From Heptranchias perlo (taxonomy: Eukaryota): a stretch of 64,000 nt of DNA. The notes under the pieces are model-generated. The model saw only the letters and a program-made list of their open reading frames with translations, was not told where the DNA came from and ran no database searches. This document shows positions 26,516 through 55,916 of the stretch, one piece after another (the stretch's first letter is position 1; the number at the start of each line of letters is the position of its first letter). The position numbers and the translations under genes were made by a program. The stretch covers positions 6,076,001 to 6,140,000 of the forward strand of contig NC_090348.1 in the NCBI RefSeq assembly GCF_035084215.1. Direction: 5' to 3'.

Positions 26516-26521
26516 AATAAA
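26516..26521 (+). promoter_or_regulatory. Candidate polyadenylation signal (AATAAA) of INTS13
   Basis: AATAAA about 285 nt after the stop codon in an AT-rich 3' UTR. Confidence 0.55.
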
Positions 26522-27588: not shown

Positions 27589-28724
27589 TTATTTTTTGGA
27601 TTGCAGCTCATAAGGAGGAGGGAGTTGATATTTTGGTGGCTCGGATTGTAAATTAGGCAGCCTGATGCGGGATGGTGTATTGTGTTGTATGTTACTGGGT
27701 GTTAAGTCTGCTCTGTGCAGTTGATGAGGAAGTTTTACCCACAGCTGCGATGGCGGGGGCACCTCAGGAATGAACATGGGTGGCTTTCTCGGTCTTAGTG
27801 CGTGCATCTCTAAGTGGTGACTACGTGCAGTTGGTCGGTTTTCTTGAAAGCTCAGTACTTCAGAGGGGAGGATCTTTTCTGAGTATCTGCAGAAGCAATA
27901 GATCGTAACTAATAAGGCAATTAGAAGAATAAGAAGCAACACTGTGAGAATGGTAGGCCAGATGGTCGTCAGCAAGTAAGAGCTGTGAGATTGAATGATC
28001 GTAGTACTCAGATCTGCTGTGGGCATTGTAGACAGGCAGGCTCCACCATAAGTGACATTCTCAACTGTTTGAATTCGGTACTCTGGTAACATCGTCTCAA
28101 CAAAAGATGGATGTGCACGGCCATCTGGCAAACGGATTAGTTTGAACAACTTTTCAATAGTACTCGTTGGACATTCCTTTAAAACGCCTTTGCTTGCTGA
28201 ACACAAGGAATTGTTGTACCACGATACTAGTGTGGAACCTGGTTTTATGGAGAAGAGGACAATGTCCTCACTGCTCGAGTCATTCAGATACTTAGCAAGT
28301 TTTTCTAGGAAGTAGACCACTCTTCCTCTATCTCGAAGAAAAGAATTGTAACTGTTTTTTGTTCTGACTGTGTACAAGTGGCAGGGCGTGTAATGTGATA
28401 GCCGGAGTTCAATCACAAAACCTTCTTGAACAACAAGTCCACCTGAATCAGTAGCAGTCAAGACAAATTCTTGTGGTGAGTATTGATAGTCTGTCTCCAG
28501 TGGATACCCAAACAGAGTTTTCCGCGATTGATTAAATCTCACCCAAGACTCTTTTCCTGAAGGGGATCCATCGACTGAAGCTACTGTCAGAGTTAAGTTT
28601 CTGGCATTTCCGTCTTCTTGATCAAAAAATGTGTGTGCAGGTACAGAATAATGAAATCTTTGTCCTACAGTTGCCAAGATGAATTCAATTGGGTTGATTA
28701 CAATTGGAGACTTGTTGGCCTGCC
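27589..28724 (-). CDS. Dystroglycan-like gene, terminal coding exon 5: second cadherin-like domain, SEA module (G|S), TM helix, cytoplasmic tail ending PPKYQLPPPYELQSKK*
   Basis: tttag|GG acceptor, phase 1; TFFDQED, SWVRFN, ATDSGGL, IKPG|STLVSWYNNSL, CP...GAC, TM helix and PPPY all parallel the DAG1 alpha C-terminus and beta subunit. Confidence 0.93.
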
Positions 28725-28984
28725 CTAAAGGACAGTGCAAAAAAAAATAAAATGTGATTAGTATTGCAAATACCGTTCCGTAATTAACAATTATCACTAT
28801 TTCCATTTATTGTGCCACAGATTATTAGCTAGTCCCTGAAACTGACTACACCACTCCTGATCTTAGCTGAGAAACTGAAGGGAAGCCCAGTGGTTTCCAG
28901 CGCAGGGAGGATGGTAAAATCTGAGACTTTCAGTGCCATTATATGCCAATTTTGTATCAGTGCCAAGTCATGTCTGGTGTAATA

Positions 28985-29330
28985 AAACAGAAAATGATGG
29001 AAATACTTAGCAAGTTAAGCAGTATCTGAAGAAAGAAACAGTTAGTGTTTCAGGTCGAAGACCTTTCGTCAGAACTGGAAGATGTTAGAGTTAACAGTTT
29101 TTAAGCAAGTACACAGCCAGGGAAGAGGAGGAGAGGAAAGAACAAAAGGGAAGTCTGTGATGGGATGGAGGGCAGGAGTGATTAAATGATGATAAAAGAG
29201 TGATGAGCGGTCTTCGACCTGAAACGTTAACTCTGTTTCTTTCTCCACAGATGCTGCCTGACTTGCTGAGAATTTCCAGCATTTTCTGTTTTTATTTCAG
29301 ATTTCCAGCATCCACAGTATTTTGCTTTTG
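28985..29330. mobile_element. Penelope-derived inverted-repeat element (second family) with hammerhead-like cores
   Basis: aaaacagaaaatg.tggaaa...gtttcaggtcgaagacc is mirrored by ggtcttcgacctgaaac...tttccagcattttctgtttt. Confidence 0.6.
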
Positions 29331-30512
29331 ATTTAGTGTATGTTGACGCAAGAGTGGAAGTGTAACTCGAGGAAGGCAATCTGACTCCAGTGTGTTGAAA
29401 CTAGAAGCTGCAAGGCCACGTTTAGCAGATAATCTCCTACCAGCTGGGCTTTACACCAGGTGTAGAATCACTCCAGCCAAGAGCAAAGCATTTGAAATTA
29501 ACCAACTGGGAGGCGAGCATTGGCAGTACATTTGCTGTGCACGGGTAGGAGCAACCGGCAGCATAGCCTGGGTCTGCCACCTGTGAACCTCAATGTACAG
29601 ATCGTAAACCATTATCTGTAACACCACAATTAGTCACACTCAGTTGGTCTCTTACAAATCCTTGAAATCAACTCAAGAGCAGTATTAATGGAAACCTGGG
29701 AGCATGTTTGTGTCTGCCTATTGGCTGGAGAATAGTGTAGGGTGTGAGGGGAGGAAGGGACAAGTAAAAGAGCAAAAAGAATGGCTAATCAGTAATAGAA
29801 AGTGACCGGGCAAAATATGGTATCGTTCCAGCCATTAATTGCATGTACTGTTGCCTCCATATGAACTATAACTTTGTGCTGGCAGTTTTTCTCTACGTTA
29901 CGATGACAGATGTTTCCAAGGAAACAGCTACTTGCATCAGGGAAGAAAATGGTAAGAACTGGAAAGAATATCTGTTTTATTAAATATCTGTGGCATTGAT
30001 CATGCTGAATCAGGGGATGTGCTGTTTTGAATTGGGGTATACAAAGTACGGACATCTTTGTGGGCGAGGGAACCTGAAGACAACAACTCTGGTGGTGTGT
30101 GGGGCCCAGCACGACACAATTGAATGACTGAATGAAGGGATAATGGTGTAAGGTTCTGCACACTGGTTAAAGATATAGTACAGCAATATTGCACTACATC
30201 ACACAGATGTTCACAAGACTTTTAATAATAGTGATGGATTTCACCGTTCGGTACCTGAGACAGCCAGTTCAATTTAGGTTTATGATAAGCCTTCCAAAAT
30301 GCAAAAGGACTTAGAATTCAAGACTCATTATTCCTGAATTATGCAGCAATATTACATAACAGAATAATAGTGTGCAAAAGATTGTGAAGTTATAGCCAAC
30401 TGTAAAAGATAAGATGGAGCATAATGAATCGCATTCATTGCAATGCTGTAAGTTGCATTAAGTAGAGTGATATAAAACTGATGCATGATAAGGTAATTAC
30501 GTTGTACCTTAC

Positions 30513-32531
30513 CATTGTACTCTGAGGCAGGTATTTCAAGGGTAGATGAAATCTTCTTTGTGTCCTTGGGGCTCAGACTTTCAATTATAGTTGTTTGAGA
30601 GGAACTTGGAATCTTCGTGAACGTATCCTGAGAAGTCCAACTTTTGAAGGCATGTGTTTCTTGTATTAATACTGAGTGAACTGGTGCTGTAATTGATTGA
30701 CTTGACCAGTATGTGAATACTAGACTTTCGTCAAAACTAAAAGTAGGGATGCTGAGGCTTGACTGGCTGGGTATTAAGATGTTTAATATGCTGGATACTT
30801 GAAACTGTTCTGTGTGATTGTAACTGTCTTGCCAAATGCCAATCTTGTTGACTGACATTGCATTCATTGAATACTGACTGATTTGATGTGTGTTAGTAGA
30901 GGATATTGTGGAATAGAATAAATGTGACCCAAAGGAATGAAACAAACTTTCAGGTAACGGTATGGTCTGTTGCAAAGATGAGATGAAGTATGACAACTCT
31001 GTAGATACAATATAATGGCTAAAAAATGGCTGTGAAGTGGGATATCTTAAGTCCACCTGGGATGAGAATGATGGCATGAGAGATGGTAGGCTATCATTCT
31101 GTGTCATTAAGGTAGTAATAGGCATTCTTGCATTGTCACTGTATGCCTCAAATACACCAACAGATGTTTTTAGCTCATTGGATGGAACTGAAGAGCTGAA
31201 AGTCTCAGTGAAATTAATTGATGGCAGAATATCTGTAAACGAAGGTGGAAAACTGATGGAATCACCCTGGCTGAACTGATTTTTAACTTGCCTGAATGAC
31301 TGTAAACTGGTAAGAGGATCTTGAACTGTGGACAGAAAAGAAAATTCAGGTAATGGAGAAGTAGGAGACATTGTGAAGGTGGACAGCATAAGATCCTTTC
31401 TGACTGATGAGTAGGATGTAACAGTCACAGAAGACCATACGAGTTTGGTGGCTGAGTGAGAGACCAAGAGTGAATATGGTGTGCGATCCACTGCTGTAAG
31501 AGAAGAAGTGATGAACCTTGAGTGGTGTAATAGTATATGGCCATCGATGGATGAATTTAAAGGATTAATAGAGTCCCGACTAGATTGGTTTTCTTGGAAT
31601 GAGTGTGAATACATGGGAATCATTGAATGGGTAGACAGCACTGGATGTTCTTGAAAAGAAATAGAAGGAACGTGTGATTGTTTGATTGATTGCTTTACAA
31701 TTTCTCCAATTGATAGAGAAGATACAGTTTCAAAAGAGTAAAAGAAAATTGAGGTGAGAATCAACTGATCAGAGATGTATGTGGTAGTGAGAAAGTTAGC
31801 TGTTTGTGTGTCAAAAGAGGACAAAATAACTTTATTAGGATAAGAAAAAGATTGTGACTGAGGATAAAACATAGTGCCTGATTTGACAGAATATAAGGTA
31901 GACTCTGAAAGCTTTCTGTCTGAACTAAGTAACAAAATATTTGTAGCCATTAATTCAGGTTTGATTGTATGTACTGAAATGGGTTCTGATGAGCTTTGTA
32001 AGTGTGCTGGTGTACTTAGTGTGCTAGGTGAGATGGTAAAAATGTTGGGTGCTAATAGATAACTTGTGCCAGTAATTTCCTCGCTGCTGCCATTAAATAA
32101 CAAACTTGTTTGAATATCGCTTATATTGGTAAATGCAAACGGTAGGCTTGGTGACATGTCAATTTTCTGTGTCGCATAAAATAAACTTTTCATGGCTCTT
32201 GAAGCTAGCCCTGTTGACCAAAGTGTACTGTCCATTGAGTGGAAAGACAAGTCGTCTTTGGTTAGCTTTATGCTCGAGGCATCTGTGACCAGCATCCCTG
32301 TAGAAAGTGATTTCTCCACGTTGATATATGTTGTCAACTGGGAAATTGGCATAAGGCTACTTGGTAAAGGTGAAGCATCGGAGAACAGCTGGGTGTGTTC
32401 TGACAAAAGGTGTAAAGGACTGACCAGATTGAGACTTGTTTCAACCTTGGCATCTGATTCAGAACTGTATCTTTTGTCATCCATGGTGGATTTGATGAAA
32501 CCAGTGTTGTCTTCAGTTGCTGTATACATCT
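30513..32531 (-). CDS. Dystroglycan-like gene, coding exon 4: 673-codon Ser/Thr-rich mucin-like exon
   Basis: Polypyrimidine tract then aacag|AG acceptor, G|gtaagg donor, 2019 nt open frame, phase 1-1, consistent with both flanking exons. Confidence 0.82.
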
Positions 32532-33229
32532 CTGTTTTAGGGCAAAATGGAAAAAACAGAACATCTATACTTACTGTACTTTGTTAATGTTAATCTCTTG
32601 AATATAATTTACAAAAAGGTAAAAGCTTTTTTTTTCCTATTCGAAGAAAAGGGATGGCATTTGTAACACATTTCTCAAAGTGAAATACTCTGGTGCGCAG
32701 GTTCTGCCATTAGGTAAACCAACCACATGCACGCAGCAAAATCCCTCAAACAGCAATGAGACCAATGAGCAGTTGATCTCTCTTCCAGGAGGAAAGTTGG
32801 CCAGGACACTGGGAGAATTCCCTGGTCTGTGAATAAACTTCAGTGAAATAATGTTCAACACCCCCAATTCCTTATTATTTGTTCAGCTTCCACATACAAA
32901 CAAAAAGGTTGTCAACCTAACAGGTGAAGTCATAGGAATGATATCCCTTTTAAGAATTTATATCCAGCCCATGTTATATGCAAGTCATCATTCCAGATTT
33001 AACCCATTTTTAGTTATCTGAATTGGCAGCAAAGCTACTGTTCTCCATGCCAGGAATAATTTCTTCCAGACTTTACTATTTTAATGTGTTTCTGCTTCAG
33101 TTTTTGTTCAGATTCTCTGGAGTTGAAGCATACTTTATTTGCCGTTCTGTGGTTGATATGTTCAACTCTCTTGCCTCACTTCAAAAGCTGCCACTTGAAT
33201 TTTCCAGTGGCTAATGCATTGCCCCCTAC

Positions 33230-34392
33230 ATATGTGATATACATGGATATTCAACAGGCCTTCAATAAGGTACCGCATAGTAGATTCATGACTAAGGTCA
33301 GGCCATGTGGAGTCGGGACAAGGAGCAGAATGGATAGCAAATTGGCTACAAATCGGAAAATAGAGTAGGAATTAAAGATAGTTACTCAGACTGGCGGAAG
33401 GTGGGAAGTGGTGTTCCACAGAGATAGGTGCTGGGACCGCTGTTGTTCACCGTTTACATAAATGATTTGGACTTTGGAATCGGAAGTACGGTATCAAAAT
33501 TTGCGGATGACACCAAATTGGGGGGTATAGCTAATACTGAGGAAGACAGAAAATACAAGAAGACATTAACAAACTTGCAGAATGGGTGTGTAAATGGCAA
33601 ATGAATTTCAATAGATAAGTGTGAGGTGGTGCATTTTGGTAGGAGGAATAAAGAGGCTGCCTGTTCCTTGGAAAAGAAGAGTAAGTGGAGTAGAGGTGCA
33701 AAGGGGTCGAGGGGTACAGTTTCACAAATCATTAAAAATAGCAACACAGGTTAATAAGGTCATAAGAAAAGCAAACCAAGCACTGGGGTTCATTTTTAGA
33801 GGAATAGAATTCAAAAACAGAAGTTACGTTAAACTTGTATAGAACTTTGGTTAGACCATGTTGAGAGTACTGTTCACAGTTCTGGTCTCCATATTACGAA
33901 AAGGATATAGAAGCACTGGACAATATGCAAAAAAGATTTACAAGGATGATACTAGAACTGAGAGTACAACTATCACGAAAGACTGGGGCTCTTTTCTCTG
34001 GAACAGGGAAGACTGAGAGGTGACCTGATAGGGGTCTTTAAAATTATGAAGGGGTTTGGTAGGGTAGACATAGAGAAGATGTTTCCACTTGTGGGGAATC
34101 CAAAACTAGGGGCCATAAATATAAGATAGTCACTAATAAATCCAGTAAGGAATTCAGGAGCAACTTCTTTACCCAGAGAGTATCACGCTACCACGTGGAG
34201 TAGTTGAGGTGAATAGCATAGATGTATTTAAAGGGAAGCTGGATAAGTACATGAGGGAGAAAGGTCTAGAAGGTTTCTGCTGATCAGGTTAGATGAAGTA
34301 AGATGGGAGAAGGCTCGTGTGGAGCATAAACACCAGCATAGAACTGTTGGGCCAAATGGCCTGTTTCTGTGCTGTAAAATTCTATGTAATTT
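33230..34392 (+). mobile_element. Decayed 5'-truncated CR1 LINE
   Basis: VIYMDIQQAFNKVPH and KFADDTKLGG motifs; tail ttctatg repeats. Confidence 0.85.
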
Positions 34393-34844
34393 TCTATAGT
34401 GTACCAGTTGTTTGTTAGTTCTTGAACTGCCACAGCAAGAACATGGGAGTGTTCCAGATCAGACAGAAAATTAATTTGAGTTTTGCAGCATGTCCTTGGA
34501 CACTGCCAAATAGCATCGTGCTGCTTATGGCTCTCGAGCTCATGGTTATATCAAATGCAAAGACTATAAAGGAGACCATTTGTACTTGAACCCTCCTGCA
34601 CAAAAGTTCAAGAAGTAAATGCTGTTTTGCCAGGAAGCAGTAGGGTGTGGCCATTGCCGTAAGCTGATAGACTTGATGAATGTTCAAGGCAAGTTACCTT
34701 TACAGCCTCCTCCACAGTTTCTTACATTAACAAGACTCAGGCTCGTGCATGAATTCAACCAAACACCACTGAGTGGACAGACAGGCTTGAGATTCAAAGA
34801 GTGTAGTTGGGACTGGCCTGCTAGGGCCTAATCCACGAATATTA

Positions 34845-35172
34845 GAGTCATAGAGTTATATAGCACGGATAGAGGCCCTTCGGCCCATCGTGTCCGCGCC
34901 GGCCATCGAGCCCTGTCTACTCTAATCCCATATTCCAGCATTTGGTCCGTAGCCTTGTATGCTATGGCATTTCAAGTGCTCATCCAAATGCTTCTTGAAT
35001 GTTGTGAGGGTTCCTGCCTCCACAACCCTTTCAGGCAGTGAGTTCCAGACTCCAACCACCCTCTGGGTGAAAAAGTTCTTTCTCAAATCCCCTCTAAACC
35101 TCCCGCCTTTTACCTTGAATCTATGTCCCCTTGTTATAGAACCCACAACGAAGGGAAAAAGCTCCTTAGTAT
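34845..35172 (-). mobile_element. CR1 3' fragment
   Basis: TRGHRFKVKGGRFRGDLRKNFFTQRVVGVWNSLP...GPNAGIWD*. Confidence 0.88.
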
Positions 35173-36845
35173 CCAGTGAGGCTTTCTTCTGACCATATCA
35201 ACTTGCTCCTGATCTCTATGCAAGGGTGCAATGCAGATTTGGACCCAGACAATCGATTCTCTTCAACACCTCATACATAGTAATGCAGAATGGAAGTGGT
35301 ATCCCCTGTGCTCTTTCCATCAATATCAGCTTAATTGATGGATTCTTATACTGTTATCCAGTCTATCACCTATTATTTGGAAATGGGTTGACTTAATAGT
35401 TTTGTTAGAAAATGAAAACTAACTGCCCCCTGGACAAGTGGATGCCCTGTCTATGGAAAAGCAAGGTTCTAGAAATATAAATGGAGAGACTGTGATGGCG
35501 GATAAAATTTTAAGTACCATACTTTCTTGGGTAAGTGAAACTTAATTTTGGACAAATACTTTGGATATGGCCTTATGATTGCTCCATACAAGCATTAATT
35601 GTGATGGATTTATCCACTGCATCAAGGTTATTTACATAACGTACTCAGGAAAAACAAGTATGTAATCTTCAAAATTGGCAATTTAATATCACAAAAGACC
35701 ATGCCAACTTTCAAGACTACGTACTTAAAAACAAACGGACAGGAGTAGGCCATTCAGCCCCTCAAGCCTGTTCTGCCATTCAGTTAAATCATGTACCTCA
35801 ATCCCGTTTACCTGCCTTCACTCCATACCCCTTGATACCCATACCTAACAACAATCTATCGATCTCAGTCTTGAAAATTTCAATTGATTCAGCAGCCACA
35901 GCCTTTTGAGGGAGTGAGTTTCCACTACCCTTTGTGTGAAAAAGTGCTTCTTGATTAAACTGAGGATAATGCGCATTATCTGACAGAATAACCTTGATTA
36001 CATCTTCCCCGCTGACAAAAACCCAACTATTGATTTAAAACTGAAACTTTCACAACCACATACAGAAGATGGAGGGCTAGATATAATACAACTGCTCTTA
36101 CAACAGCCATTTTCTGGCTTGGAAGAATCTACTGATCCGAGGCTTCCTTCAGAGTTGAACTCTGGAAAGTATTTTGTTAACATCTTGAAAGCCTAATGCC
36201 AAATTGTTGACATTGGGTTTTAATCTCGGGGATACATTTTTACCAAGATGGATCTATAACTCCGATAAATTTCCAATGATAATGTTTCAATTACTTTATT
36301 CAAAAAGGAAACAAACCTGTTAAACCTACCGGCCATTAGGGGTTTTCTTGAGAATAGGTGGTGGCCGTATTATCTAGTATTGATTGTATTTAAGGCTGCG
36401 ACATTCTTTTGACGGCACTGACAAGATTTGAAACCAGCACTGTTTTGCTCTTGCAATATTTTTCTTTGCAATGCTTCACTGCATATGCTTGGTGTTTTCT
36501 TCTGTACTCTCCCTCAAAAGAAAATGGTATGCTTCCAGAGCAAGGCAGTACGGATAGAAGTTCACATGACTGGCACGTAAACTCTTAATGGGACAGCGGT
36601 TTCTGATAACGTGCCAGGCATTGAGACCCAAGTTTCAAATCCCAGCCTATTACCGACATTTCCTCAGAGGAAAGTTATCCATCGCATGGAGGTGGACATA
36701 CCATCCAGCTCTCTGTCAGCAAGGACTGTCAAAGGGAATGAGGGGAAAAACCGACCCAGCACTGGCTGTTGGTTGAATAAGGAATAGCATCAATTGTGTT
36801 TGTGGAGATGGGTCAAACTGGATTGCCAGATATGGCAGGCGCGAG

Positions 36846-38527
36846 TTTTTTTTTTATTCGTTCACGGGACGTGGGCGTCGCTGGCGAGGCCAGCATTTCT
36901 TGCCCATCCCTAATTGCCCTCGAGAAGGTGGTGGTGAGCCACCTTCTTGAACCGCTGCAGTCCGTGTGGTGACGGTTCTCCCACAGTGCTGTTAGGAAAG
37001 GAGTTCCAGGATTTTGACCCAGCGACAATGAAGGAACGGCGATATATTTCCAAGTCGGGATGGTGTGTGACTTGGAGGGGAACGTGCAGGTGGTGTTGTT
37101 CCCATGTGCCTGCTGCTTTTGTTCTAGGTGGTAGAGGTCGCGGGTTTGGGAGGTGCTGTCGAAGAAGCCTTGGCGAGTTGCTGCAGTGCATCCTGTGGAT
37201 GGTACACACTGCAGCCACAGTGCGCCGGTGGCGAAGGGAGTGAATGTTTAGGGTGGTGGATGGGGTGCGAATCAAGCGGGCTGCTTTATCTTGGATGGTG
37301 TCGAGCTTCTTGAGTGTTGTTGGAGCTACACTCATCCAGGCAAGTGGAGAGTATTCCATCACACTCCTGACTTGTGCGTTGTAGATGGTGGAAAGGCTTT
37401 GGGGAGTCAGGAGGTGAGTCACTCGCTGCAGAATACTCAGCCTCTGACCTGCTCTCATAGCCACAGTATTTATATGGCTGGTCCAGTTAAGTTTCTGGTC
37501 AATGGTGACCCCCAGGATGTTGATGGTGGGGGATTCGGCGATGGTAATGCCGTTGAATGTCATGGGGAGGTGGTTAGACTCTCTCTTGTTTGAGATGGTC
37601 ATTGCCTGGCACTTATCTGGCGCGAATGTTACTTGCCACTTATGTTGTCCAGGTCTTGCTGCATGCGGGCTCAGACTGTTTCATTATTTGAGGGGTTGCG
37701 AATGGAACTGAACACTGTGCAGTCATCAGCGAACATCCCCATTTCTGACCTTATGATGAAGGGAAGGTCATTGATGAAGCAGCTGAAGATGGTTGGGCCT
37801 AGGACACTGCCCTGAGGAACTCCTGCAGCAATGTCCTGGGGCTGAGATGATTGGCCTCCAACAACCACTACCATCTTCCTTTGTGCTAGATATGACTCCA
37901 GCCACTGGGGAGTTTTCCCCCTGATTCCCATTGACTTCAATTTTACTAGGGCTCCTTGATGCCAGGATCGGTCAAATGCTGCCTTGATGTCAAGGGCAGT
38001 CACTCTCACCTCACCTCTGGAATTCAGCTCTTTTGTCCATGTTTGGACCAAGGCTGTAATGAGGTCTGGAGCCGAGTGGTCCTGGCGGAACCCAAACTGA
38101 GCATCGGTGAGCAGGTTATTGGTGAGTAAGTGCCGCTTGATAGCACTGTCGACGACACCTTCCATCACTTTGCTGATGATTGAGTGTAGACTGATGGGGC
38201 GGTAATTGGCCGGATTGGATTTGTCCTGCTTTTTGTGGACAGGACATACCTGGGCAATTTTCCACATTGTCGGGTAGATGCCAGTGTTGTAGCTGTACTG
38301 GAACAGCTTGGCTAGAGGCGCAGCTAGTTCTGGAGCACAAGTCTTCAGCACTACAGCTGGGATGTTGTCGGGGCCCATAGCCTTTGCTGTATCCAGTGCA
38401 CTCAGCCGTTTCTTGATATCACGTGGAGTGAATCGAATTGGCCGAAGACTGGCTTCTGTGATGGTGGGGATATCGGGAGGAGGCTGAGATGGATCATCCA
38501 CTCGGCACTTCTGGCTGAAGATGGTTC
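36846..38527 (-). mobile_element. 5'-truncated LINE family B copy (RT plus 3' tail)
   Basis: ORFs 37671..38501 ([29 protein letters not shown]) and 36910..37602; poly-A end. Confidence 0.92.
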
Positions 38528-38642
38528 AGTGAGGCAATTAAGTGACTGTTTTATAAACAGCAATAAATAACCTATTAAAACAGGATACTATTAAAGTGAT
38601 ATCTCAACTGTAGGGGCTAAGAAATGAAACCAAATTACTTAC

Positions 38643-40225
38643 CTAATAAACTTGTGTTCAGATGAATCGTTGAAAGAGAGCTAAAGGCATTGTAAATATC
38701 CTGGGATTTTGTCATTTTTTGAGGAGAAGCATAGGTATTTGATAGAAACAGCAGAGATCTGAGTATATGATCACCAGAAGCCAATGAATTTACCGTAAGT
38801 GCTGTTGTGGTACCAACAAATATTGAGGAATGGATGGGAGGAGTGCGTAATGGAGAAGTTAGTTTCGTACTGATGACTGATGAATGACTGTAGAGAGTTG
38901 GGAGAGGAAGTAAGTACTTAGGACTATCAGTCATGCTATAACTATGCAGAGCTTTAACTGATGAAGTCTCCACCTTGTAATATTGGTTAGTGCTAGTGAT
39001 GATGGCCAAGACTGTTGGTGCCATTTTATCCAAAATGGGTGTACCAAACGTGTTCAGTGCAGTCAGTAGGGTAGTTTCGTCAAATAGTGATGACATTGAT
39101 GAAGATAGTATGTTTGGGCTGGCAGTAACAGTAAACTGTTCAGTCAGCTGAGGTTGTATGATGGCTATAGAGGAGGTCTGGGTAGCGGAAGTGAGAACTG
39201 TTGGAATTATGCTTTGAATCCCCTTTGTTACAAACTCAGTAACCACTGTTGGAGTAGGTGACAGTTGTGACTGTTGCGCAATTCTGAGAGATGAAGTACC
39301 AAGGAGAAAATAACTTGAGGGTTCAAGCACAGGGAAACTTGGGAACATTGACTCCATCTCTGATTTAGCCAAGAGCACATGTGAAGTTTGTGTGTCTAAT
39401 GACGTTACAGGTTTTGATGGCAGCGTAAATAAGGGTAAAAGTTTGGTCGTTTCTAAAACAGACTTCATTGCAAGTGAGGTTGGTGGTGGGAATGAGAGCA
39501 CAAAGCCAGAGAAACTGCTCAAGTAAATCTCTGTGAAATTAATGGATGCTTTGAGTTGAACAGAAGTGAATGAGGTTCTGAACGGGGAGCTTTGTTGCCT
39601 TTTCGGGGACGTTGGGATGCCTGACGCTGTAGTTTGTACATCCCATCTGTCCTGCTCGGTTGCAGAATCCAGTTTTGAATAGTCTATGTTTGACGTGAAA
39701 GTTTTGGTAAAGATCTGGGTAAGTATTGTAGGCTCAGGTCTGATTAAGTAGGTTGGTTTAGGTGGTGTCATTGCAGGTGTTGGTGAAACCATTAAAACTT
39801 GGCGCCGGTTCCTTTGAAGATGCATGATCTTTTTTCCTTTTCTCAATACCCTCCAGCCTGAAATATGCCATCCTAAATACTGTGAAATATGACCGGAGAA
39901 GACATTATGATTCAAAACCTGACTGAGTTCCTGCAACATCCCAAAGCTCCCGCAGCTGATAGGCCAATAGATTTCTACCGCTTCTCTGTCCGTAGAACTC
40001 CTGTTGCCGGCTTCAGAAGCCAAAATATGGATCATCTTCGGTTTAAGATTCGTCATATCCCTGAATGGGCATAGTGTTAATAAAAATGGATCTGTACGTA
40101 GATACTCAGCCATGGATAGGACGAGAGATATGCGACTGCTCGCTCCTAAAGAGTTGATCTTGGCCTGGAGGATAACACCTGCGTAAACGGTGGGACCATC
40201 TGCTGTACATCCTCTTAAGTGAAAG
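38643..40225 (-). CDS. Dystroglycan-like gene, coding exon 3: S6-like domain, furin site RNRR, start of mucin region
   Basis: ttcag|C acceptor, G|gtaagt donor, 1583 nt, phase 2 to 1; CTADGP..VIL, WPISC and SQYLGWHISGWRV parallel DAG1 CAADEP..VIL, WKLGC and SAQLGYPVVGWHI; followed by ~385 S/T/P-rich residues. Confidence 0.9.
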
Positions 40226-40653
40226 CTGAAGACAGGAAAAAATAGCTTTAGCAAATTAAATCTGTAAATATAACATTTTAGTTATGTTTAATAAAATATA
40301 ACTACAGTAGGTATAAAGGTATGAAAGTGCTTTTTTTTTGCTTGAAGATGAATGCCCTGGGTTACTTTCTAGTTCCGTACTGATTAGCATAAGAAACTTG
40401 ATCATTAATTTGTCCTGAATTTCACTAAAGATCAGCACTGATTTTAAGATCTGAGACCAGATTTTGATAAGTTTCTATAATGTGGTTGGATCCCCAAGGA
40501 AATTGTCAAGAAAAGCAGTGTCAGATGGAGGTGACCCTAAAGATCAGCTATTTGTACAGTCAAGATAATAACCCATCAAGAGCAGGTTGTACTCAATAGT
40601 TTTAAAACATTCATAATTTCTTACTGAAGTGAAAAAAAAAATCTAAATCCTAC

Positions 40654-40898
40654 TTGTCCGATGTTGGAAAGCGACGGCCTGTTGTGGTGTTCCGTTCGTT
40701 GGTGTTTCGATCTTCGTTCAAAACCAACAGTTGAAAAGTTGTAGAAACTTGGCTTGACTTGTGCTGCATATTTCCTCGAGCTGTCACCTTTATGTTGTAT
40801 CCTCCAGCATCGTTGCTTGTTGGAAGGCCTTGAATGGTCCTTGTTTTTGAGTTGAATTCCAGCCATTTGGGTAGAATGGTGGCACCAACTAATGAGAC
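40654..40898 (-). CDS. Dystroglycan-like gene, coding exon 2: VSLVGATILPKWLEFNSKTRTIQGLPTSNDAGGYNIKVTAR...FPTSD(N)
   Basis: Found in a different frame from the listed ORF 40621..40866; accag|GTC acceptor, AA|gtagga donor, 245 nt, phase 0 to 2; LPxWL.F....T.xGLP...D.G matches DAG1 [24 protein letters not shown]. Confidence 0.88.
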
Positions 40899-41961
40899 CT
40901 GGTTTAAAATATAATCAGTGATGGGAGTAGTTCTTAATATGAATTATCTACCTCTCCAACAACAAATTGCATTTAAATAGTGCCTTTAATGTAGTAAAAT
41001 GTCCTAAGGTGCTTCACAGGAGCGTAATCAGACACAAAAATAAATTTGGCACTGAACCAAAGAAAGTGACATTAGGACAGGCGACCAAAAGCTTGGTTAA
41101 AGAGGTAGGTTTTAAGAAGCGACTTAACGGAGGAGAATTCATATTGATCAGGGGTGTCAAAACTACAGCCCGTGGGTCACATACGGCCTCAACCCCTGGC
41201 ATTTAACCCTTGAAGCCCAGATAATTCCGTCCTATTTGCACTTGTACATCTTGCTCTCTGGTTTTGAATTTTATGAGCCTGGAGATTTGGAAAAATTTGT
41301 TCTTAGTCCTGTTGCCCCATTGGTAGATAAATCGTAAATCAGAACACCAAGATCTGTACATATCAGCAACTTGGGACGTGTGCAAATTAATGGGAGCACA
41401 GATTTAAAGTTTTTATATGGTTCCGGAGATTCTGTGGTATCCACCTTTGTGCTCCTTCAAGACAAAAAGCCTGGACTTCGCTGACCAGGATTAATCCAAG
41501 TTGCAGCATTAATTTCACCGGTTTGTATTATCCAAGCAATGTTCGGTTCTGTTAGTGTGTTCCAGCATATCGATCCTATTGTTTAACTAAGCCACCAAGT
41601 AAATAGTTTGTTGGTTTAGATAAAACTAATGGCCTGCATTTCAATAATTCACATCAGCAATTCTCTCAGACTTTTGATTTTTCTCCTGATGTCGCCCTAT
41701 ATAATTGCTGAAGAATTTTGATCTGCCCACTTTTTTTTGTACACTCAAATTATGTTGGACAATTGATCCTTCCAGGGGTCAGTTCCCTGACTTCATTGCA
41801 ACATATGTTATAGAACTATTGCATTCATTGAAACTGTCCAGTATATCATAGAATAACCCATTATCCAAGGTGAGAGGAGGCAATCACTGGGACATTGGGT
41901 GCTTGATGCCTTATAGGAAGCATGTTGACCACATGCTTCAGCTTTGACCCTTCGTAAGTGT

Positions 41962-43120: not shown

Positions 43121-43269
43121 TCACATGGGGTGTTCTGGGTCCAAGACAGATGGAACAATGTGATCTTGTCACTTCTGGAGTAGGGAAGCTCACTCACAAT
43201 CTTCTATTTCTGTTACCTGTTCCAAATGTGACTGATCAGCGTACTTAACAGTTCTATGACCTGAATCGG

Positions 43270-47945: not shown

Positions 47946-49044
47946 AAAATCTTTTATTTCTATAAGTATCAAATTGCTTCATTCTATGAAACGGTATTTA
48001 TTCCCTACTCTTAAACCTCTGTGGCTGTACCTCGCTGACCCCATTCCTTTTCCCAAGATACTCTCCATCATTCAGCCACTTCCTCTCTGACCCCTACACC
48101 ACATGGGCACCCATACCTTGCTGTATCTCTGCTAACTCTCTTTCACATTATTGTTTTCTCTACCCTTGCTGTTTCCAGTTGATCCACTTTGAAAGACTAG
48201 GGATCCCATCTTCTTCCGTAGAAATACTGAGCGATTTCATTGACCAGGGAGACGAACAGGAAATCATTGTGTTTGCTAACAACTGATTCTCCACTGATAG
48301 CTTCCATACTTTTTTGGTGCTTCTGGATTGGTAATTTTTGTGCCTACTTGCTACGTGTTCATTGCAAAGAATAAATTTTGATGATAGGAGTCTATTGCAC
48401 CCCGCCCCCAGTTTGGTCGGTAATCTTCCCCTGGTTATTTTGGGAAGGTTTGGTACAGCTGTATCTTCTCCCCTTTCCAAGCCCCACAAGTAGCATTGCT
48501 ATCTATTTAATGTTTTGCATCAGTAGGCCCCCCCCAAAATCCCTTACATTCATCCCTTTGTACCTCATATCGTGGGCATCCTAGATTAAATGTGTATCTC
48601 TCGGCTTCTCTGCTGCTCCTCCTGCTCTTCTTTCACAAATCATCTTCCCAATGGGCTCCATCCTGTCTTGATTTTGTGCTGAGAAACAGTATGTCTCTGA
48701 TTCCATTTTCTCCCTGTGGCGTCTTGTCCATCATTCTATCAAATTTTGTTCCACTAATTATCTCCAGGCCCAATCCCAACATCATTTACAGTAATCTGAT
48801 TTGAAAGGTAGATTACTTGGCAAATCGCACTACTATCATTGCTTAAAGGATATAAATCCTTATTTACAATCCTCGAGTCTTTCTATAATATCTCACGTTC
48901 TCCAAATTATATTATTCAGACTTCACCTGATCTTAAATATGGATTCCCACATCAGACTATAACTTGAGATTTGTCTCAGTCTTGTTGCAACCCCTTTGGT
49001 GCTAGTGTGTCTGTTAATTCACTAGACCAGAAAGATCAAAATCT

Positions 49045-49420
49045 TATCAGTCACTGTTGCAAGAAACACGGCAACCAATTAGCGTACAGTAAGGCCCCAC
49101 AAACAACATTGTGATAATGACCAGATAAACTGTTTTAGTGATGTTGGTTGAAAGATAAATATTAGTTAGGACACCAGGAAAATTCCCCAGCTCTCCTTCA
49201 AATAGTGCCATGGGATCTTTTACATCCACCTAAGAGGGCAGACATCACATTTAACATCTCGGTTTAACATCACATCCGAAAGATGGCACCTCTGACAATG
49301 CAACATTCCCTCAGTACTGCACTGGAGTGTCAGCCTGGATTATGTGCTCAAGTCTCTGGAGTGGGGCTTAAACCCATAACTTCTGACTCAGGCAAGAGTG
49401 CTACCCACTGAGCCACAGCT
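49045..49420 (-). mobile_element. DeuSINE
   Basis: Reverse-complement Deu core gtgccatgggatcttttacatccacc and tRNA head cccactgagcca. Confidence 0.8.
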
Positions 49421-50159
49421 GGCAACTAATATACAATACATAATATATTGTAACTAATATACAATATAACTAATATACAATATATTATCAGAGCCACTGG
49501 CTTATGGTGATTGAGTAAGTCAAATTGTGTTTTTATTAGAGTTTTGTAGCAATGTTAGTGATACTTTAGGGCTCAAATTTCATGATTCTGTGCATATTTG
49601 TGTGGAAACTAAATTGGTGGCCTTGATTACTGTAAAATGTTAGCTTAACTCTGTGTAGTTAATTTTATCTTTTTTTAAGCCCAGCACTCAGCGGAAGAAT
49701 GTTGCAAGGAGACAGGCTGTAGGAACTGCAAGTAGTAATAGTGAGTTGAGGGAACCAAATGGATTGGTAGAGTTGGGAGGATGATCCTGGGATTTGCCAA
49801 TAAGGCATCATAGGGTGTTCATCTCTCAAAACTCTCAGTGAACTGGAGAGATTTCCACCCCCCCACCACCCCTCCCCTTTCAAAAAAAAATTGGATTCCC
49901 AAAAATGCATGTTCGTAAATATATTTTATGAAACCATTGTACATTTGGATTGCATGCGGAAGGAGTTCATTGATACATCCCAGTACCTGCACTGGGATCA
50001 GCGTGAGTCAAGGGGTTGAGGCAACTTGTAGCTAGGGGAAACAAAATTGCACGTGGTATTCTGAATGGCCTCTTACCAGTTGGGTTAAATTAAGTGTTTA
50101 GCCTTAAAAAATAAAAACCAGGAAGACATGTCCTGGTACTATTTGCTGTTCTAAAATCA

Positions 50160-52070
50160 GAGAATCATAGAAAGGTTACAGCACAGAAGGAGGCCATTCA
50201 GCCCATCGAGTCCGCGTGGGCTCTATGCAAGAGCAATCCAGCTAGTCCCACTCCCCCACCCTATCTCCGTAGTCCTGCAATTTTTTTCCTTTCAAATACT
50301 TATCCAGTTCCCTTTTGAAAGCCATGATTGAATCTGCCTCCACCACCCCCTCGGACAGTGCATTCCAGATCCTAACCACTCGCTGTGTAAAAAAGTTTTC
50401 CCTCATGTCACCTTTGGCAAAAGAACCAATCACCTTAAATCTATGTCCTCTGGTTCTTGACCCTTCTGCCAATGGGAGCAGTTTCTCTCTATCTACTCTG
50501 TCCAGACCCTTCATGATTTTGAATACCTCTATCAAATCTCCTCGCAGCCGTCTCTGTTCCAAGGAGAACAACCCCATCTTCTTCAGTCTATCCACGTAAC
50601 AAAAGTCCCTCATCCCTGGAATCATTCTAGTAAATCTCTTCTGCACCCTCTCTAAGGCCTTCACATCTTTCCTAAAGTGCAGTGCCCAGAACTGGACACA
50701 ATATTCCAGTTGTGGTCGAACCAGTGTTTTATAAAGATTCATCTTGACTTCCATACTTTTGTACTCTATGCCTCTATTTATAAAGCCCAGGATCCCGTAT
50801 GCGTTTTTTAACTGCTTTCTCAACCTGCCCTGCCACCTTCAACAATTTGTGCAGATAAACCCCCAGATCTCTTTGTTCCTGTACCCCTTTTAGAGTTGTG
50901 CCCACTAGTTTATATTGCCTCTCTTTGTTTTTCCTACCAAAATGTATCACTTCGCATTTTTCTGCGTTAAATTTCATCTGCAACGTGTCAGCCCATGCCA
51001 CCAGCCTGTCTATATCCTCTTGAAGTCTATCACTATCCTCCTCGCTGTTTACTACCCTTCCCATGTTTTGTGTCACCTGCAAATTTTGAAATTGTGCCCT
51101 GTACACCCAAGTCCAAGTCATTAATATATATCAAGAAAAGCAGTGGTCCCAGCACCGACCCCGGGGGAACACCACTGTACACCTCCCTCCAGTCCGAAAA
51201 ACAACCGTTCACCACTATTCCCCATTTCCTATCCCTTAGCCAATTCTGTATCCATGTTGCTACTGCCCCTTTATTCCATGGGCTGCAATCTTCATGATAA
51301 GCCTACCGTGCGGCACTTTATCAAACGCCTTTTGAAAGTCCACATACACCACATCAACTGAAGTGCCCTCATCTACCCTCTCTGTTACCGCATCAAAAAA
51401 ATCTATCAGGTTAGTTAAACACGATTTGCCTGTAACAAATCCATGCTGCTTTCCCCAATCAATTCATACTCATCCAAGTGACTGTTAATTCTGTCCAAGA
51501 TTATCGTTTCTAAAAGTTTCCCCACCACTGAGGTTAAACAGACTGGCCTATAATTGCTGGGTTTATCCTTACACCCTTTTTTGAACAAGGGTGTAACATT
51601 TGCAATTCTCCAGTCCTCTGGCACCACCCCCGTATCTATGGATGTTTGGAAGACTATGGCCAGCACCTCTGCAATTTCCACCCTTACTTCCCTCAGCAAC
51701 CAAGGATGCATCCCATCCGGACTGGGTGACTTATCTACTTTAAGTACAGCCAGCCTTTCTAGTGCCTCTTCTTTATCAATTTTTAGCCCATCCAGTATCT
51801 CAACTACATCTTCCTTTTTTGTAAAGAAAGAGACTCTGGCAGCATCTTCTTCCTTTGTATAGGCAGATGCAAAGTACTCATTTAGTACCTCAGCCATCCC
51901 CTCTGCCTTCATGAGTAGATCTCCTTTATGGTCCCTAATCGGCCCATCCCTCCTCTTACTACCCGTTTACTGTTTATATGCCTGTAGAAGACTTTTGGAT
52001 TCCCTTTTCATGTTGGCCGCCAGTCTATTCTCATATACTTTCTTTGCCCTTGCTATTTTCTTTTTCACTT
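50160..52070 (-). mobile_element. 5'-truncated CR1 LINE
   Basis: ORFs 51415..51912, 50774..51121 and 50242..50823 carry CR1 RT and C-terminal motifs. Confidence 0.92.
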
Positions 52071-52072
52071 CC

Positions 52073-55000
52073 ATAGAATCATAGCATGGTTATAGCACAG
52101 AAGGAGGTCATTCGGCCCATTGAGCCTGTGCCGGCTCTTTGTAACAGCAATCCAGTTAGTCCTGATCCCCTGCTCTTTCCCCATAGCCCTGCAATTTATT
52201 TCCCTTCAAGTATTTATCCAATTCCTTTTTGAAAGCCACGATTGAATCTGCTTCCACCACCCGTTCAGGCAGCGCATTCCAGATCATAACGACTCACTGC
52301 GTAAAAAAGTTTTTCCTTGGTTTTTTTGCCAATTACCTTGAATCTGTGTTCTCTGGTTCTCGACCCTTCTGCCAATGGGAACAGTTTCTCTTTATTTACT
52401 TTATCTAAACCCTTCATGATTTTGAACACTTCTATCAAATCTCCTCTCAACCTTCTCTGCTCTGAGAACAACCCCAGCTTCTCCAGTCTATCTACATAAC
52501 TGAAGTCCCTCATCCCTGGAACTATTCTAGTAAATCTTTTCTGCACCCTCTCTAAGGCCTTCACATCCTTCCTAAAGAATTAGGACACAATGCTGCAGTT
52601 TTGGCCAAACCAGTGTTTTATAAAGGTTCAACATAACTTCCTTGCTTTTATACTCTATGCCTCTATTTCTAAAGCCCAGAATCCTGTATGCCTTTTCAAC
52701 CTGTTCTGCCACTTACAAAGATTTGTGCACATATACCCTCAGGTCTCTGTTCCTGCACCCCCTTTAGAATTGTACCATTTAGTTTATATTGTCTCGCCTC
52801 ATTTTTCCTGCCAAAAGGTATCACTTCGCACTTCTCTGAGTTAAATTTCATCTGCCATGTGTCTGTCCATTCCACCAATGTCCTCTTGAAGTCTATCTCT
52901 ATCCTCCTCACTGTTTATTACACTTCCAAGTTTTGTGTCATCTGCAAATTTTGAAATTGTTCCTTGTACACCCAAGTCCAAGTCATTAATATATATCAAA
53001 AAAAGCAATGGTCCCAGCACCGACCCCTGGGAAACACCACTGTATATCTTCCTCCAGTCCAAAAAAACAACCATTCACCACTACTCTCTGTTTCCTGTCA
53101 TTTATCCAATTTTGTATCTATGCTGCTACTGCCCCTTTTATTCCATGGGCTTCAATTTTGCTGACAAGCCTATTATGTGGCACTTTGTCAAACACTTTTT
53201 GAAAGTCCATATACACCACATCAGCCACATTGCCCTCATCAACCCTCTCTGTTACCTCATCAAAAAACTCAATCAAGTTAGTTATACACGATTTGCCTTT
53301 AACAAATCCGTGCTGGCTTTCCTCAGTTAATCCACACTTGCCCAAGTGACTATTAATTTTGTTCTGGATTATCATTTCTAAAAATTTCCCCACCACCGAG
53401 GTTAAACTGACTGGCCTGTAGTTGCTGGGTTTATCCTTACACCCTTTTTTGAACAGGGGTGTAACATTTGCAATTCTCCAGTCCTCTGGCACCACCCCCA
53501 TATCTAAGGAGGATTGGAAGATTATGGCCAGAGCCTCTGCAATTTCCATCCTTACTTCCCTCAGTAACCTAGGATGCATCCCATCGGACCGGGTGACTTA
53601 TCTACTTTAAGTACAGTCAGCCTTTCTCTTTATCGATTTTTTAGCCCATCCAGTATCTCAACTATATCTTCCTTTACTGAGACTGTGGCAGCATCTTCTT
53701 CCTTGTTAAAGACAGATGCAATGTACTCATTTAGTACCTCAGCCAGGCCCTTTGCCTCCATGCGTAGATCTCCTTTTTGGTCCCTAATCGGCCCCACCCC
53801 TTCTCTTACTACTCATTTACTATTTATATGCCTATTGAAGACTTTTGGATTCCCTTTTATATTGGCCACCAGTCTATTCTCTTACTCTCGCTTTGCCCCT
53901 CTTATTTCTTTTTTCATTCTCCTCTGTACTTTCTATATCCAGCCTGGTTCTCACTTGTATTATCAACTTGACATCTGTCATACGCCCCCTTTTTCTGCTT
54001 CATCTTATTCTCTATCTCTTTCATCATCCAGGGAGCTCTGGTTTTAGTTGCCCTACCTTTCCCCCTTGTGGGAATGTACATAGACAGTACCCGAACCATC
54101 TCCTCTTTAAAGACCGCCCATTGTTCGATTACAGTTTTGCCTGCCGATCTTTGCTTCCAATTTATCCGGGCCAGACCCGTTCTCAACTTACTGAAATTGG
54201 CCCTCCTCCTTTAAGTATTTTTACTCTAGATTGCTCCTTGTCCTTTTCTATAACTAATCTAAACCTTATGATACTACGATCACTGTTCCCTAAATGTTCC
54301 CCCACTGACACTTGCTCCACTTGGCCCACCTCATTCCCCAGGACTTGATCTAACAATGCGTCCTTCCTCGTTGGGCCGGAAATATACTAATCAAGAAAGT
54401 TCTCCTGAACACACTTCAGAAATTCCTCCCCCTCTTTTCCCTTTACACTATTACTGTCCCAGTCTATATTAGGGTAGTTGAAGTCCCCCATTATCACTAT
54501 TCTATAGTTCTTGCACCTCTCTGTAATTTCCCTGCAAATTTGCTCCTCTATATCCTTCCACTAGTTGGTGGCCTATAGAATTCACCCAGTAGTGTAATGG
54601 CGCCTCTATTGTTTCTTAACTCTAACCAAATAGATTCTGTCCTTCACCCCTCAAGTACATCCTCTCTCTCCAGCACTGCAATATTCTCCTTGATCAATAC
54701 TGCCACCCCCCCTCCTTCTTTCCCTTCCCTATCTTTCTGAACACTGTGTATCCAAGAATATTTAATACCCAATCCTGTCCTTTTTTGAGCCAGGTCTGTT
54801 ATCACCACAACATCATATTCCCATGTGGCTATTTGCCCCTGCAGCTCACCAACATTATTTACCACACTTTGTGCGTTTACACACATGCACTCTAAACCAG
54901 TCTTAGACCTTCTCGTATTCTCTGTCTGTCTGATCCCACCTAATACTGTACTATTTCTTACTCCAGTGCTATCTGTCTCTCCCAATTCTTTGTGCACCTT

Positions 55001-55545
55001 GTATCTCCTTTCTAATGCTACATCCTGGTGCCCACTCCCCTGCCAAATTAGTTTAAACGCCCCCCACGGCACTAGTGAGCCTCCCGGCGAGGACATTGGT
55101 CCCAGCTCGGTTGAGGTACAACAAGTCCGTCTTGAACAGGTCCCTCCTGTCCTAGATCTGGTCCCAATGCCCCAAGAATCTGAAGCCCTCCCTCCTGCAT
55201 CATGCCTCTAGCCACACATTAACCTGTCTCATCCTACTATTCCTACACTCACTGGCGCATGGCACTGGGAGTAATCCAGAGATTACTACTTTTGAGGTCC
55301 TGCTTTTTAACTTCCTCCCTAGCTCCTGAAACTCTAACTGCAGGACCTCAACCCTTTTCTTTCCTATATCTTGATTCCCACATGGACCTCGACATCTGGC
55401 TGTTCCCCCCCCCCCCCCACAGAATGTTCTGCGCTCTCTCCGTGATGTCCTTTACCCTGGCACCAGGGAGGTAACACACCATGCGGGACTCACATTGGCG
55501 GTTACAGAAACACCTGTCTGTCCCCCTGACTATCGAATCCCCTGT
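52073..55545 (-). mobile_element. Long CR1 LINE (part of ORF1 esterase, APE, RT, tail), directly abutting the previous copy
   Basis: LECMCVNAQSV...YDVVVIT and GGGVAVLIKE (APE); RT ORFs 53118..53579 and 52841..53074; tail at ~52075. Confidence 0.92.
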
Positions 55546-55643
55546 TTATAACTGTAAGCTTCTCACTGATTGGATAAATCATCTCCAAGTAGAGTAATTT
55601 AAAACACCATCTATGCAGCATTTGCCTGATATGCGGTCCTTAC

Positions 55644-55916
55644 CTTGTATTGGTCTATTGGGCCATAAAAAGCAAGCGGTGGTACAGGGTAATAAAATAT
55701 CTTTCCTGCTCTGGCGATTGCGTCTGGAATTCCCCGATAGATCCTCACCTCCCCCGGGAGGAAAGTGGTGCTGGCCGAGTACGGCTGGTTGGTAACAGGG
55801 GTAGGGTCAGACAGTGCGATGAAGAAGCCCGTTGCCCCCGCCAACACCAACAACAAAGGCAGGTAGCTGAGCGCACCACTCCGCAGCCTGCCCCAGGCTC
55901 TGGCGGGGCTCGCCAT
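55644..55916 (-). CDS. Dystroglycan-like gene, coding exon 1: signal peptide plus start of Ig/cadherin-like domain (MASPARAWG...GIPDAIARAGKIFYYPVPPLAFYGPIDQYK)
   Basis: ATG in strong Kozak context (acgATGG); hydrophobic LPLLLVLAGATG; GIPD..A..G..F...P resembles DAG1 GIPDGTAVVGRSFRVTIP; AAG|gtaagg donor, phase 0. An upstream in-frame ATG at 55964 is also possible. Confidence 0.85.

Follow-up and report, generated by a model that had tools for sequence, protein, structure and literature searches.

The 64,000-nucleotide window analyzed here (Heptranchias perlo, contig NC_090348.1, positions 6,076,001 to 6,140,000; contig C27 below) carries on its minus strand, at window positions 27589..55916, a five-exon gene for which the working name DG2 is used. 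The dystroglycan of humans and other vertebrates (DAG1) is the muscular-dystrophy receptor and is usually regarded as one of a kind. DG2 is an intact second dystroglycan and not the orthologue of DAG1.

Splicing and translation of the five exons listed in a preliminary description of this DNA yielded 5256 nt, corresponding to 1751 amino acids followed by one terminal stop, with all introns GT-AG and in phases 0, 2, 1 and 1. The coding part of exon 1 (55644..55916; minus strand, as for all features of the gene) contains the start codon, the signal peptide (hydrophobic at 15–33) and the first part of IG1, and exon 2 (40654..40898) encodes the rest of this cadherin/Ig-like domain, matching Pfam He_PIG with E 3.1e-10. 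Exon 3 (38643..40225) encodes the S6-like domain, the furin site, a candidate core-M3/matriglycan site and the first 385 aa of the mucin stalk, followed by 672 codons of Ser/Thr-rich stalk in exon 4 (30513..32531). Exon 5 (27589..28724) comprises IG2, the SEA/S72 module, the transmembrane (TM) helix, the cytoplasmic tail with its double PPxY, and the stop. Exons 4, 3 and 5 were open over 672, 527 and 377 codons, respectively, well above the maxima of 196, 156 and 158 obtained by shuffling the bases of each exon 300 times. The other long open frames in the window were, judged by their translations, retroelement-like fragments or belonged to a 27-nt tandem array.

Intron 1 lies between K91 and V92 in phase 0, at the K|V position in IG1 that Brancaccio and Adams call universal among dystroglycan genes (PMC5216574). 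Upstream of the start codon, a candidate polypyrimidine-CAG acceptor ending at 56028 would make 55917..56027 (minus strand) the 5' part of the ATG exon; a non-coding exon may then precede it upstream, as is the case in DAG1. This candidate part contains a short upstream open reading frame at 56000 and an in-frame ATG at 55964, 16 codons ahead of the DG2 start and in weak context.

The dystroglycan domain order proposed earlier was recovered from Pfam, from sequence matches to the Protein Data Bank (PDB) and from AlphaFold and Foldseek: signal peptide, IG1, S6, furin site, mucin stalk, IG2, SEA, TM helix (at ~1624–1653) and tail. In Pfam, He_PIG was matched in exons 2 and 5 and the DAG1 family PF05454 in exon 5 (E 1.4e-11); a_DG1_N2 in exon 3 remained below the cut-off (E 0.03), and the S6 region aligned to alpha-dystroglycan (alpha-DG) over 163 aa (E 6.9e-5). 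Dystroglycan chains were the best PDB sequence matches of exons 2, 3 and 5, with E 2.2e-8 for exon 2 against alpha-DG 9C3C_A. The AlphaFold model of exon 5 (mean pLDDT 73) consisted of an Ig domain, SEA and one long helix, and its top Foldseek match was beta-dystroglycan (beta-DG) 8YT8_O from the cryo-electron microscopy structure of the dystrophin-glycoprotein complex (DGC), with E 2.9e-23. The elements by which the family is defined in PMC4582122, namely signal peptide, IG1, S6, mucin-like region, IG2, MAT/NU (SEA) and one TM segment, were all found in DG2 and in this order.

A separate true DAG1 was looked for in the genome, and a canonical one was found on another contig (C20, ~51.97 Mb), with a 795-codon single 3' exon that ends in the usual PPPYVPP. 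The C-terminal half of its product is identical to the protein named dystroglycan of Heptranchias perlo. The DAG1 Pfam family detected only two loci in the genome, DG2 and the C20 gene, the latter being the genome's best DAG1 match. DG2 and vertebrate DAG1 share the domain order, the K|V intron, the Gly|Ser cleavage site, the beta-ectodomain cysteine pair (C1558/C1603 in DG2) and the terminal PPxY. They differ in locus and clade, in layout (five coding exons and 1751 aa in DG2, two coding exons and about 890 aa in DAG1), in the folded domains (identity to the shark's own DAG1 22% for the N-terminal and 27% for the C-terminal ones), and in the long Ser-rich, basic-poor stalk, an extra cysteine pair across the cleavage site, the missing basic juxtamembrane cluster, and a tail in which two canonical PPxY motifs precede a C-terminal extension. 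In the trees, DG2 stood outside the vertebrate DAG1 clade, and its own clade was supported at 100*. Together with the canonical gene on C20 and the length of 1751 aa, this agrees with the earlier view of DG2 as an old paralogue.

A search with exon 5 among long proteins returned at least 55 matches, 54 of them vertebrate at 38–82% identity and the last one a bacterial cadherin. The vertebrate matches included sawshark, sturgeons, paddlefish, gar, bowfin, turtles, lizards and birds; an unfiltered search together with cluster look-ups of 30 matches added chimaera, horn shark, coelacanth and five named teleosts, as well as dolphin, macaque and fin whale. Among the named matches listed, amphibians, lungfish, marsupials, monotremes and cyclostomes were not represented, which is not evidence of loss. 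A shark-specific duplication was ruled out by orthologues across jawed vertebrates, and the 22 DG2 rows in a 63-row quick tree formed the single 100* clade, roughly following species relationships. Orthologues were labelled 'dystroglycan-like' by automated annotation, as had been anticipated, and also 'mucin-like', 'uncharacterized' or, wrongly, 'DAG1/dystroglycan 1'. The sturgeon and paddlefish models (P0002–P0004) lack the S6 end and the furin/TPT region present in gar and bowfin, either by real loss or by mis-prediction.

Compared with the sawshark orthologue, the domains were 82–90% identical and the furin region 96%, while the mucin stalk reached 72–76% (exon 4 76%) and the tail 77%; with domains and motifs more conserved than stalk and tail, this is the pattern of a protein under selection. 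The start of exon 5 occupied the same position in the orthologues.

All motif counts given below for DG2 refer to the 54 vertebrate orthologues of the exon-5 search, 44 of which span the S6/furin region. The S6-like domain of DG2 holds C179/C264 and is followed by a furin motif, R311–R314 then Q, fitting the R-x-RRQ of PMC4582122; R-x-x-R was found at this place in 43/44 orthologues and the strict R-x-K/R-R in 26/44. Just behind it, S320-P-T322-P is a candidate core-M3/matriglycan site, S/T-P-T being present in 36 of the 44, as S-P-T-P in sharks and as T-P-T in holosteans, coelacanth, turtles and birds. A matriglycan carrier is characterized by a TPT after RXR and an N-terminal domain for LARGE1 (PMC8360118, PMC9917425): the TPT motif is recognised by POMGNT2 (PMC8360118), and the N-terminal domain of dystroglycan allows matriglycan to be elongated by LARGE1 (PMC9917425), which makes DG2 a candidate carrier.

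In the SEA module, the predicted autoproteolysis site is G1536|S1537, and Gly-Ser was kept in 53/54 orthologues. The extra cysteine pair, C1488 before the cut and C1548 after it, was observed in 52/54 orthologues and in 0/120 DAG1 sequences. In the AlphaFold model of exon 5 these cysteines flank strands 1 and 3 of the SEA fold. Since these two strands are adjacent in the fold, a C1488–C1548 disulfide tying alpha to beta is plausible on the model.

The mucin stalk of DG2 measures 1060 aa, about six times the 180 residues of DAG1; it is Ser-rich (31% S+T), contains no Cys, and has 5.5% Lys+Arg versus 15% in DAG1. The description of the protein as giant (~1751 aa) held for this shark and not for the family, where giant size as a trait was ruled out by most full-length orthologue models, at about 1150–1600 aa. 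The stalk length also differed by species and isoform (gar models of 1068 and 1581 aa), and this variability, together with the Cys-free Ser/Thr-rich composition, the SEA autoproteolysis site and the loss of the TPT motif in lizards, would suit a protein acting mainly as a SEA-type transmembrane mucin, a barrier or anti-adhesive glycocalyx component that is shed or mechanosensing like MUC1-type mucins and uses its dystroglycan parts as scaffold. IG1-S6, the furin site and S/T-P-T-P, which a plain mucin would not need, are nevertheless kept across most jawed vertebrates, and no tandem repeats were found in the coding exons, the stalk included; the mucin interpretation was therefore considered unlikely.

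At the end of the DG2 tail stand two canonical PPxY motifs with a spacing of two residues. This double canonical form was present in 49/54 orthologues and in all four invertebrate DG2-type rows, and in none of 120 DAG1 sequences; the WW-tandem consensus Phi-Phi-x-Y-x-x-Psi-P-x-Y with a two-residue linker was found in the window protein and 51/54 orthologues. WW tandems of KIBRA, MAGI2 and MAGI3 bind PY pairs of this spacing at nM affinity (Lin et al., PMC6744271), with KIBRA values of ~96 nM for beta-DG and ~2 nM for Dendrin, and the only human proteins named there with two canonical motifs two residues apart are Dendrin, JCAD and USP6NL. Given its spacing, the DG2 tail should recruit the WW tandems of KIBRA/WWC or MAGI2/3. 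It shares two PY motifs two residues apart with the ligands of that study (Dendrin, JCAD, USP6NL, PTPN14, beta-DG) and differs from them as a transmembrane matrix receptor with the fully canonical form, for which binding is predicted.

The preliminary description had suggested an alternative dystrophin/utrophin-glycoprotein complex. On such a view, DG2 would build a dystrophin/utrophin-sarcoglycan complex and act much like DAG1 in other tissues. The terminal PPxY of DG2 does align with the dystrophin-binding motif of DAG1, IG2-SEA-TM is modelled to fold like the beta-DG chain of the DGC structure, and the amphioxus and nemertean DG2-type proteins retain the basic juxtamembrane stretch. Vertebrate DG2, however, lacks this basic cluster, and its juxtamembrane segment aligns only weakly with the beta-DG stretch reported to contact the dystrophin ZZ domain (PMC13250547). 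The dystrophin-binding site of dystroglycan comprises the last 15 residues (PMC4582122). DG2 of this shark has the Y-x-x-PPPY core, with its end six residues short of the stop, but most orthologues carry a longer extension, and the residues upstream of the core differ; such a variable extension contrasts with an end three residues from the C-terminus. Moreover, the tail is lost in most teleost-type and in all mammalian copies examined. An alternative complex thus appeared doubtful, and by sequence the tail fits KIBRA/MAGI WW tandems better.

The acanthomorph-type tails (P0241, P0261, P0269 and similar) have lost the PY tandem, and in several of them the C-terminus is a short hydrophobic motif, which we take to resemble a PDZ ligand.

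The age of DG2 was addressed with trees of invertebrate and vertebrate dystroglycans (DG). The combined tree was built from N- and C-terminal domains under LG+C20 with 22 of 28 rows; the six omitted were five canonical invertebrate sequences and one DAG1. In it, DG2, an amphioxus protein (P0308) and a nemertean protein (P0238, Lineus longissimus) were split from DAG1 and canonical invertebrate DG at 100/100. The same split was obtained at 99/97 with the N-terminal half alone and at 94/98 with the C-terminal half and an outgroup of multi-module proteins taken to be cnidarian-like, where P0306 and P0286 also joined; without Lineus and a biased teleost row, DG2 was split from the DAG1 side at 100/99. 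Forcing DG2 and DAG1 into a vertebrate-only clade was rejected by the approximately unbiased (AU) test (p=0.011). In the N-terminal domains, DG2 shared 33% identity with amphioxus P0308 and 22% with DAG1 of the same shark, and a signature in the S6 domain is common to DG2, P0308 and P0238 and missing in DAG1, hemichordate DG and arthropod DGs. At 92 columns diagnostic between DG2 and DAG1, amphioxus matched DG2 at 26 and DAG1 at 21, Lineus at 22 and 21, respectively; all 13 canonical invertebrate rows favoured DAG1 (24–36 versus 15–21).

The two invertebrate proteins are automatic annotations, 'dystroglycan 1-like' for amphioxus (XP_078597724.1) and 'mucin-2-like' for Lineus (XP_064632762.1), which has a long stalk. 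Both grouped with DG2 in all trees built and have the double-PPxY tail with extension; they differ from vertebrate DG2 in the basic juxtamembrane stretch and the absence of the extra Cys pair, and Lineus also in carrying two IG2-SEA modules. In the ESM Atlas, only generic dystroglycan clusters were obtained for P0308. As both sides of the tree hold a protostome and deuterostomes, the duplication would predate their split if Lineus is rightly placed; if amphioxus alone is, it would predate vertebrates. A pre-vertebrate origin was therefore regarded as likely from the sequences, and the split may possibly lie at the base of bilaterians.

The gene neighbourhood was the reason why a different origin had first been preferred, namely in the vertebrate genome duplications: DG2 would be an ohnologue of DAG1 whose sequence changed rapidly at first, and long-branch attraction or retained ancestral states would account for its position beside amphioxus and nemertean proteins. 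Contig C27 carries INTS13, DG2, ITPR2 (from 6.18 Mb), a CD20-family gene (6.51 Mb) and a bHLH-orange gene (6.67 Mb), and C20 carries a bHLH-orange gene (47.57 Mb), ITPR1 (47.88–48.01 Mb) and DAG1 (51.97 Mb). The two blocks agree in order and head-to-head orientation, though over only two marker families, and the long DG2 stem (0.76–1.16) would fit rapid evolution. On the other hand, DAG1 lies about 4 Mb from ITPR1, a loose linkage, and the same map would result if both genes, already old, had shared an ancestral chromosome and then undergone reciprocal loss. The AU result, the grouping of both protein halves with invertebrate proteins, the diagnostic columns, and the common S6 signature and tail form all speak against an ohnologue, which was lowered to an improbable origin since the trees group DG2 apart from DAG1. 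No WNT locus, sought as a further paralogon marker, was found on C27, and one supplement of a jawed-vertebrate ohnolog database paper (PMC13450315) held no entries for DAG1, ITPR2 or INTS13.

Teleost Dag1a/Dag1b and the lamprey DG duplicates are likewise second vertebrate dystroglycan genes with an extra intron, which in one lamprey copy lies in the mucin region (PMC5216574, PMC4582122, PMC8478517). They are of near-normal length and limited to their lineages, unlike DG2, which occurs in sharks, holosteans, sarcopterygians and teleosts alike.

The splicing of DG2 was further examined by comparing window positions 23500–41500 with four sequencing runs tentatively taken to be RNA; the exon 1/2 junction lies outside this stretch. 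Exon 4 is covered by contigs of a related organism, and one contig from it (X3 record 20, about 96% identical) continues from exon 5 into exon 4 with 1788 bases skipped. The joint appears two bases away from the predicted position, an offset for which one synonymous change in the split codon would account. The exon 4/5 junction of the preliminary model thereby has transcript-like support; exon 2/3 and 3/4 were not among the joints listed for the stretch, which were dominated by repeats. With one of four junctions seen joined and mammalian copies broken, a non-functional or mis-joined model might be suspected; the stop-free 5256-nt frame, the domain-biased conservation, the orthologues across jawed vertebrates and their common exon-5 start make it very improbable indeed.

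The mammalian copies deviated in several ways. Fin whale (P0369), P0350 and P0351 have an open IG2-SEA-TM-tail frame without the PY tail, and P0350 has lost the cleavage Gly. The dolphin model is without most of the TM helix, the macaque model and the cluster grouped with it have a stop inside this helix, and macaque and whale models lack the furin/TPT region. Whale–primate identity of DG2 was 83–85% over 155 residues; the corresponding DAG1 comparison gave 92–96% among cat, horse, pig and one mammal-type row. By these sequences DG2 appears eroded in mammals, with shortened or truncated versions in whales and primates, which gives the impression of a constraint that was long maintained yet relaxed, with independent breakage afterwards. 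The N-terminus of the fin whale model is joined to an RNA-binding-protein-like sequence; a retrocopy nearby has probably misled the annotation here.

Taken together, DG2 is best explained, at a rough probability of 0.6, as a functional second dystroglycan, a long-stalk matrix receptor predicted to be wired to WW-tandem scaffolds, in preference to a further dystrophin anchor of muscle, and belonging to a subfamily that is probably pre-vertebrate; the full architecture and the processing motifs are kept, by sequence, from sharks to birds. The precursor would be secreted, and its IG1-S6 domain would help LARGE build matriglycan on S/T-P-T-P just past the furin site before being released by furin. 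The SEA module would then self-cleave at Gly|Ser, and the C1488–C1548 pair may hold alpha and beta covalently together. The roughly six-fold longer stalk would place the laminin-G-binding glycan far from the membrane, and the double PPxY tail would bind the WW tandems of KIBRA/WWC or MAGI2/3, which are Hippo/polarity scaffolds, more tightly than beta-DG does, with dystrophin/utrophin WW binding possible but secondary. In placental mammals the PY tail would have been lost and the gene would be breaking up in several lineages.

Several observations weigh against this explanation. On the glycan, the first residue of the shark motif is Ser instead of Thr and the second Thr is gone in 8/44 orthologues, all lizards, so that matriglycan on DG2 is not assured. 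On the tail, a looser WW-tandem consensus fits DAG1 as well (119/120), a canonical arthropod DG (P0268) also has the double canonical motif, and the PY tandem is absent from all 8 mammalian rows examined and from 12/14 teleost-type rows (for 8 of these 14, similarity was the only basis of assignment). On the origin, the C-terminal bootstrap of 94 is slightly under the star threshold, a 63-row quick tree gave the same grouping at only 86 SH-aLRT, and the invertebrate members sit on long branches. Lamprey, hagfish, tunicate and echinoderm DGs are absent from the trees, as are named canonical lophotrochozoan ones, and for amphioxus and Lineus no DAG1-type gene was identified beside the DG2-type protein. 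DG2 and DAG1 also lie in paralogous ITPR/bHLH-orange regions, as an origin by genome duplication predicts. Finally, transcript-like support came from a single junction, in one study of runs presumed to be RNA.

A wider version of the preferred explanation can be offered only tentatively. Bilaterians would have had two dystroglycans since before the protostome–deuterostome split, DG2 being a long-stalk matriglycan receptor with a covalent staple over its cleavage site that signals to KIBRA/MAGI-Hippo scaffolds, survives in most jawed vertebrates and is being lost piecemeal in placentals. These would have kept a shortened form under selection for long, and a remnant would be expected between INTS13 and ITPR2 in primates.

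Extra dystroglycan genes have been reported only in teleosts and lampreys and called isolated events, in the available text of PMC4582122, PMC5216574 and PMC8478517. No description of the DG2 paralogue was found in the literature on a second dystroglycan, on its neighbours or on dystroglycan evolution, which does not prove its absence from print. The earlier statement that no functional description was known likewise agreed with the literature searched, which mostly did not cover subscription papers. The dystroglycan family is already known and DG2 has already been labelled by automatic pipelines; as an ancient dystroglycan subfamily, it is real and probably undescribed, with a distinct wiring predicted from its sequence.

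Matriglycan is described as made uniquely on alpha-DG, and DG2 is a candidate second substrate of the dystroglycanopathy enzymes. If so, alpha-DG would not be the sole natural matriglycan carrier where DG2 survives, chicken included, and in chicken, lizards, fish and sharks DG2 would be a possible confounder where glycan antibodies or knockouts are read as DAG1-specific. It also provides a natural comparison separating load-bearing (dystrophin) from signalling (KIBRA/Hippo) roles of dystroglycan, and the mammalian remnants make the timing and cause of loss testable. DG2 already causes error: in a 2026 chicken selection scan, the gene beside INTS13 (chr1:67.94–67.98, ENSGALG00000047534) was labelled 'DAG1' by BLAST and read as DAG1 within a reported selective sweep (PMC13064311, Table 4 and Table S2). 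Because it lies beside INTS13 and chicken DAG1 carries another identifier (ENSGALG00000027710; PMC5216574), this sweep gene is very probably chicken DG2, mislabelled.

The neighbour of DG2 within the window is the 3' half of INTS13 (Asunder; 8556..27015, plus strand), recognized by Pfam Mat89Bb (PF10221), supported by contigs of the sequencing runs above, and used as a synteny marker; the whole gene extends over C27:6034380–6102900. It is convergent with DG2, with its stop at ~26231 and its last exon reaching at least 27015. About 1.36 kb separates the two stop codons, and the interval from 26500 to 27120 contains polyadenylation-like hexamers on both strands; the 3' ends of INTS13 and DG2 should therefore abut or overlap. 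On the other side, DG2 and ITPR2 are head-to-head with ~52 kb between their first coding bases (C27:6131916–6183823), and regulatory DNA could be common to ITPR2 and a putative non-coding first exon of DG2.

The CD20-family match at C27:6512247–6512513, ~0.38 Mb from DG2, was the only one in the genome, and its position may be coincidence. We presume this gene at 6.51 Mb to be sarcospan, a DGC subunit, and take the bHLH-orange gene at 6.67 Mb to be BHLHE41; this gene order would then presumably be that of human 12p.

The 5' region of INTS13 contains a 1431-codon open frame (C27:6052121–6056389) with two Mat89Bb matches, which is odd for a many-exon gene and could be a repeat or an insertion. 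At C27:6074090–6074359 a further Mat89Bb match, interrupted by stops, overlaps the profile range of a downstream exon; it may be an INTS13 exon that was duplicated and has decayed. An INTS13 intron carries a 27-nt minisatellite (window 17940–18542; 22.3 copies, 99% match) that is open in several frames, and a 61-nt triple repeat lies at window 63587–63774. Among the proteins matched in the unfiltered search, many of 3500–7500 aa with 10–23 matches to the IG2-SEA module were observed (P0176–P0188 and similar), which are giant dystroglycan-like repeat proteins.

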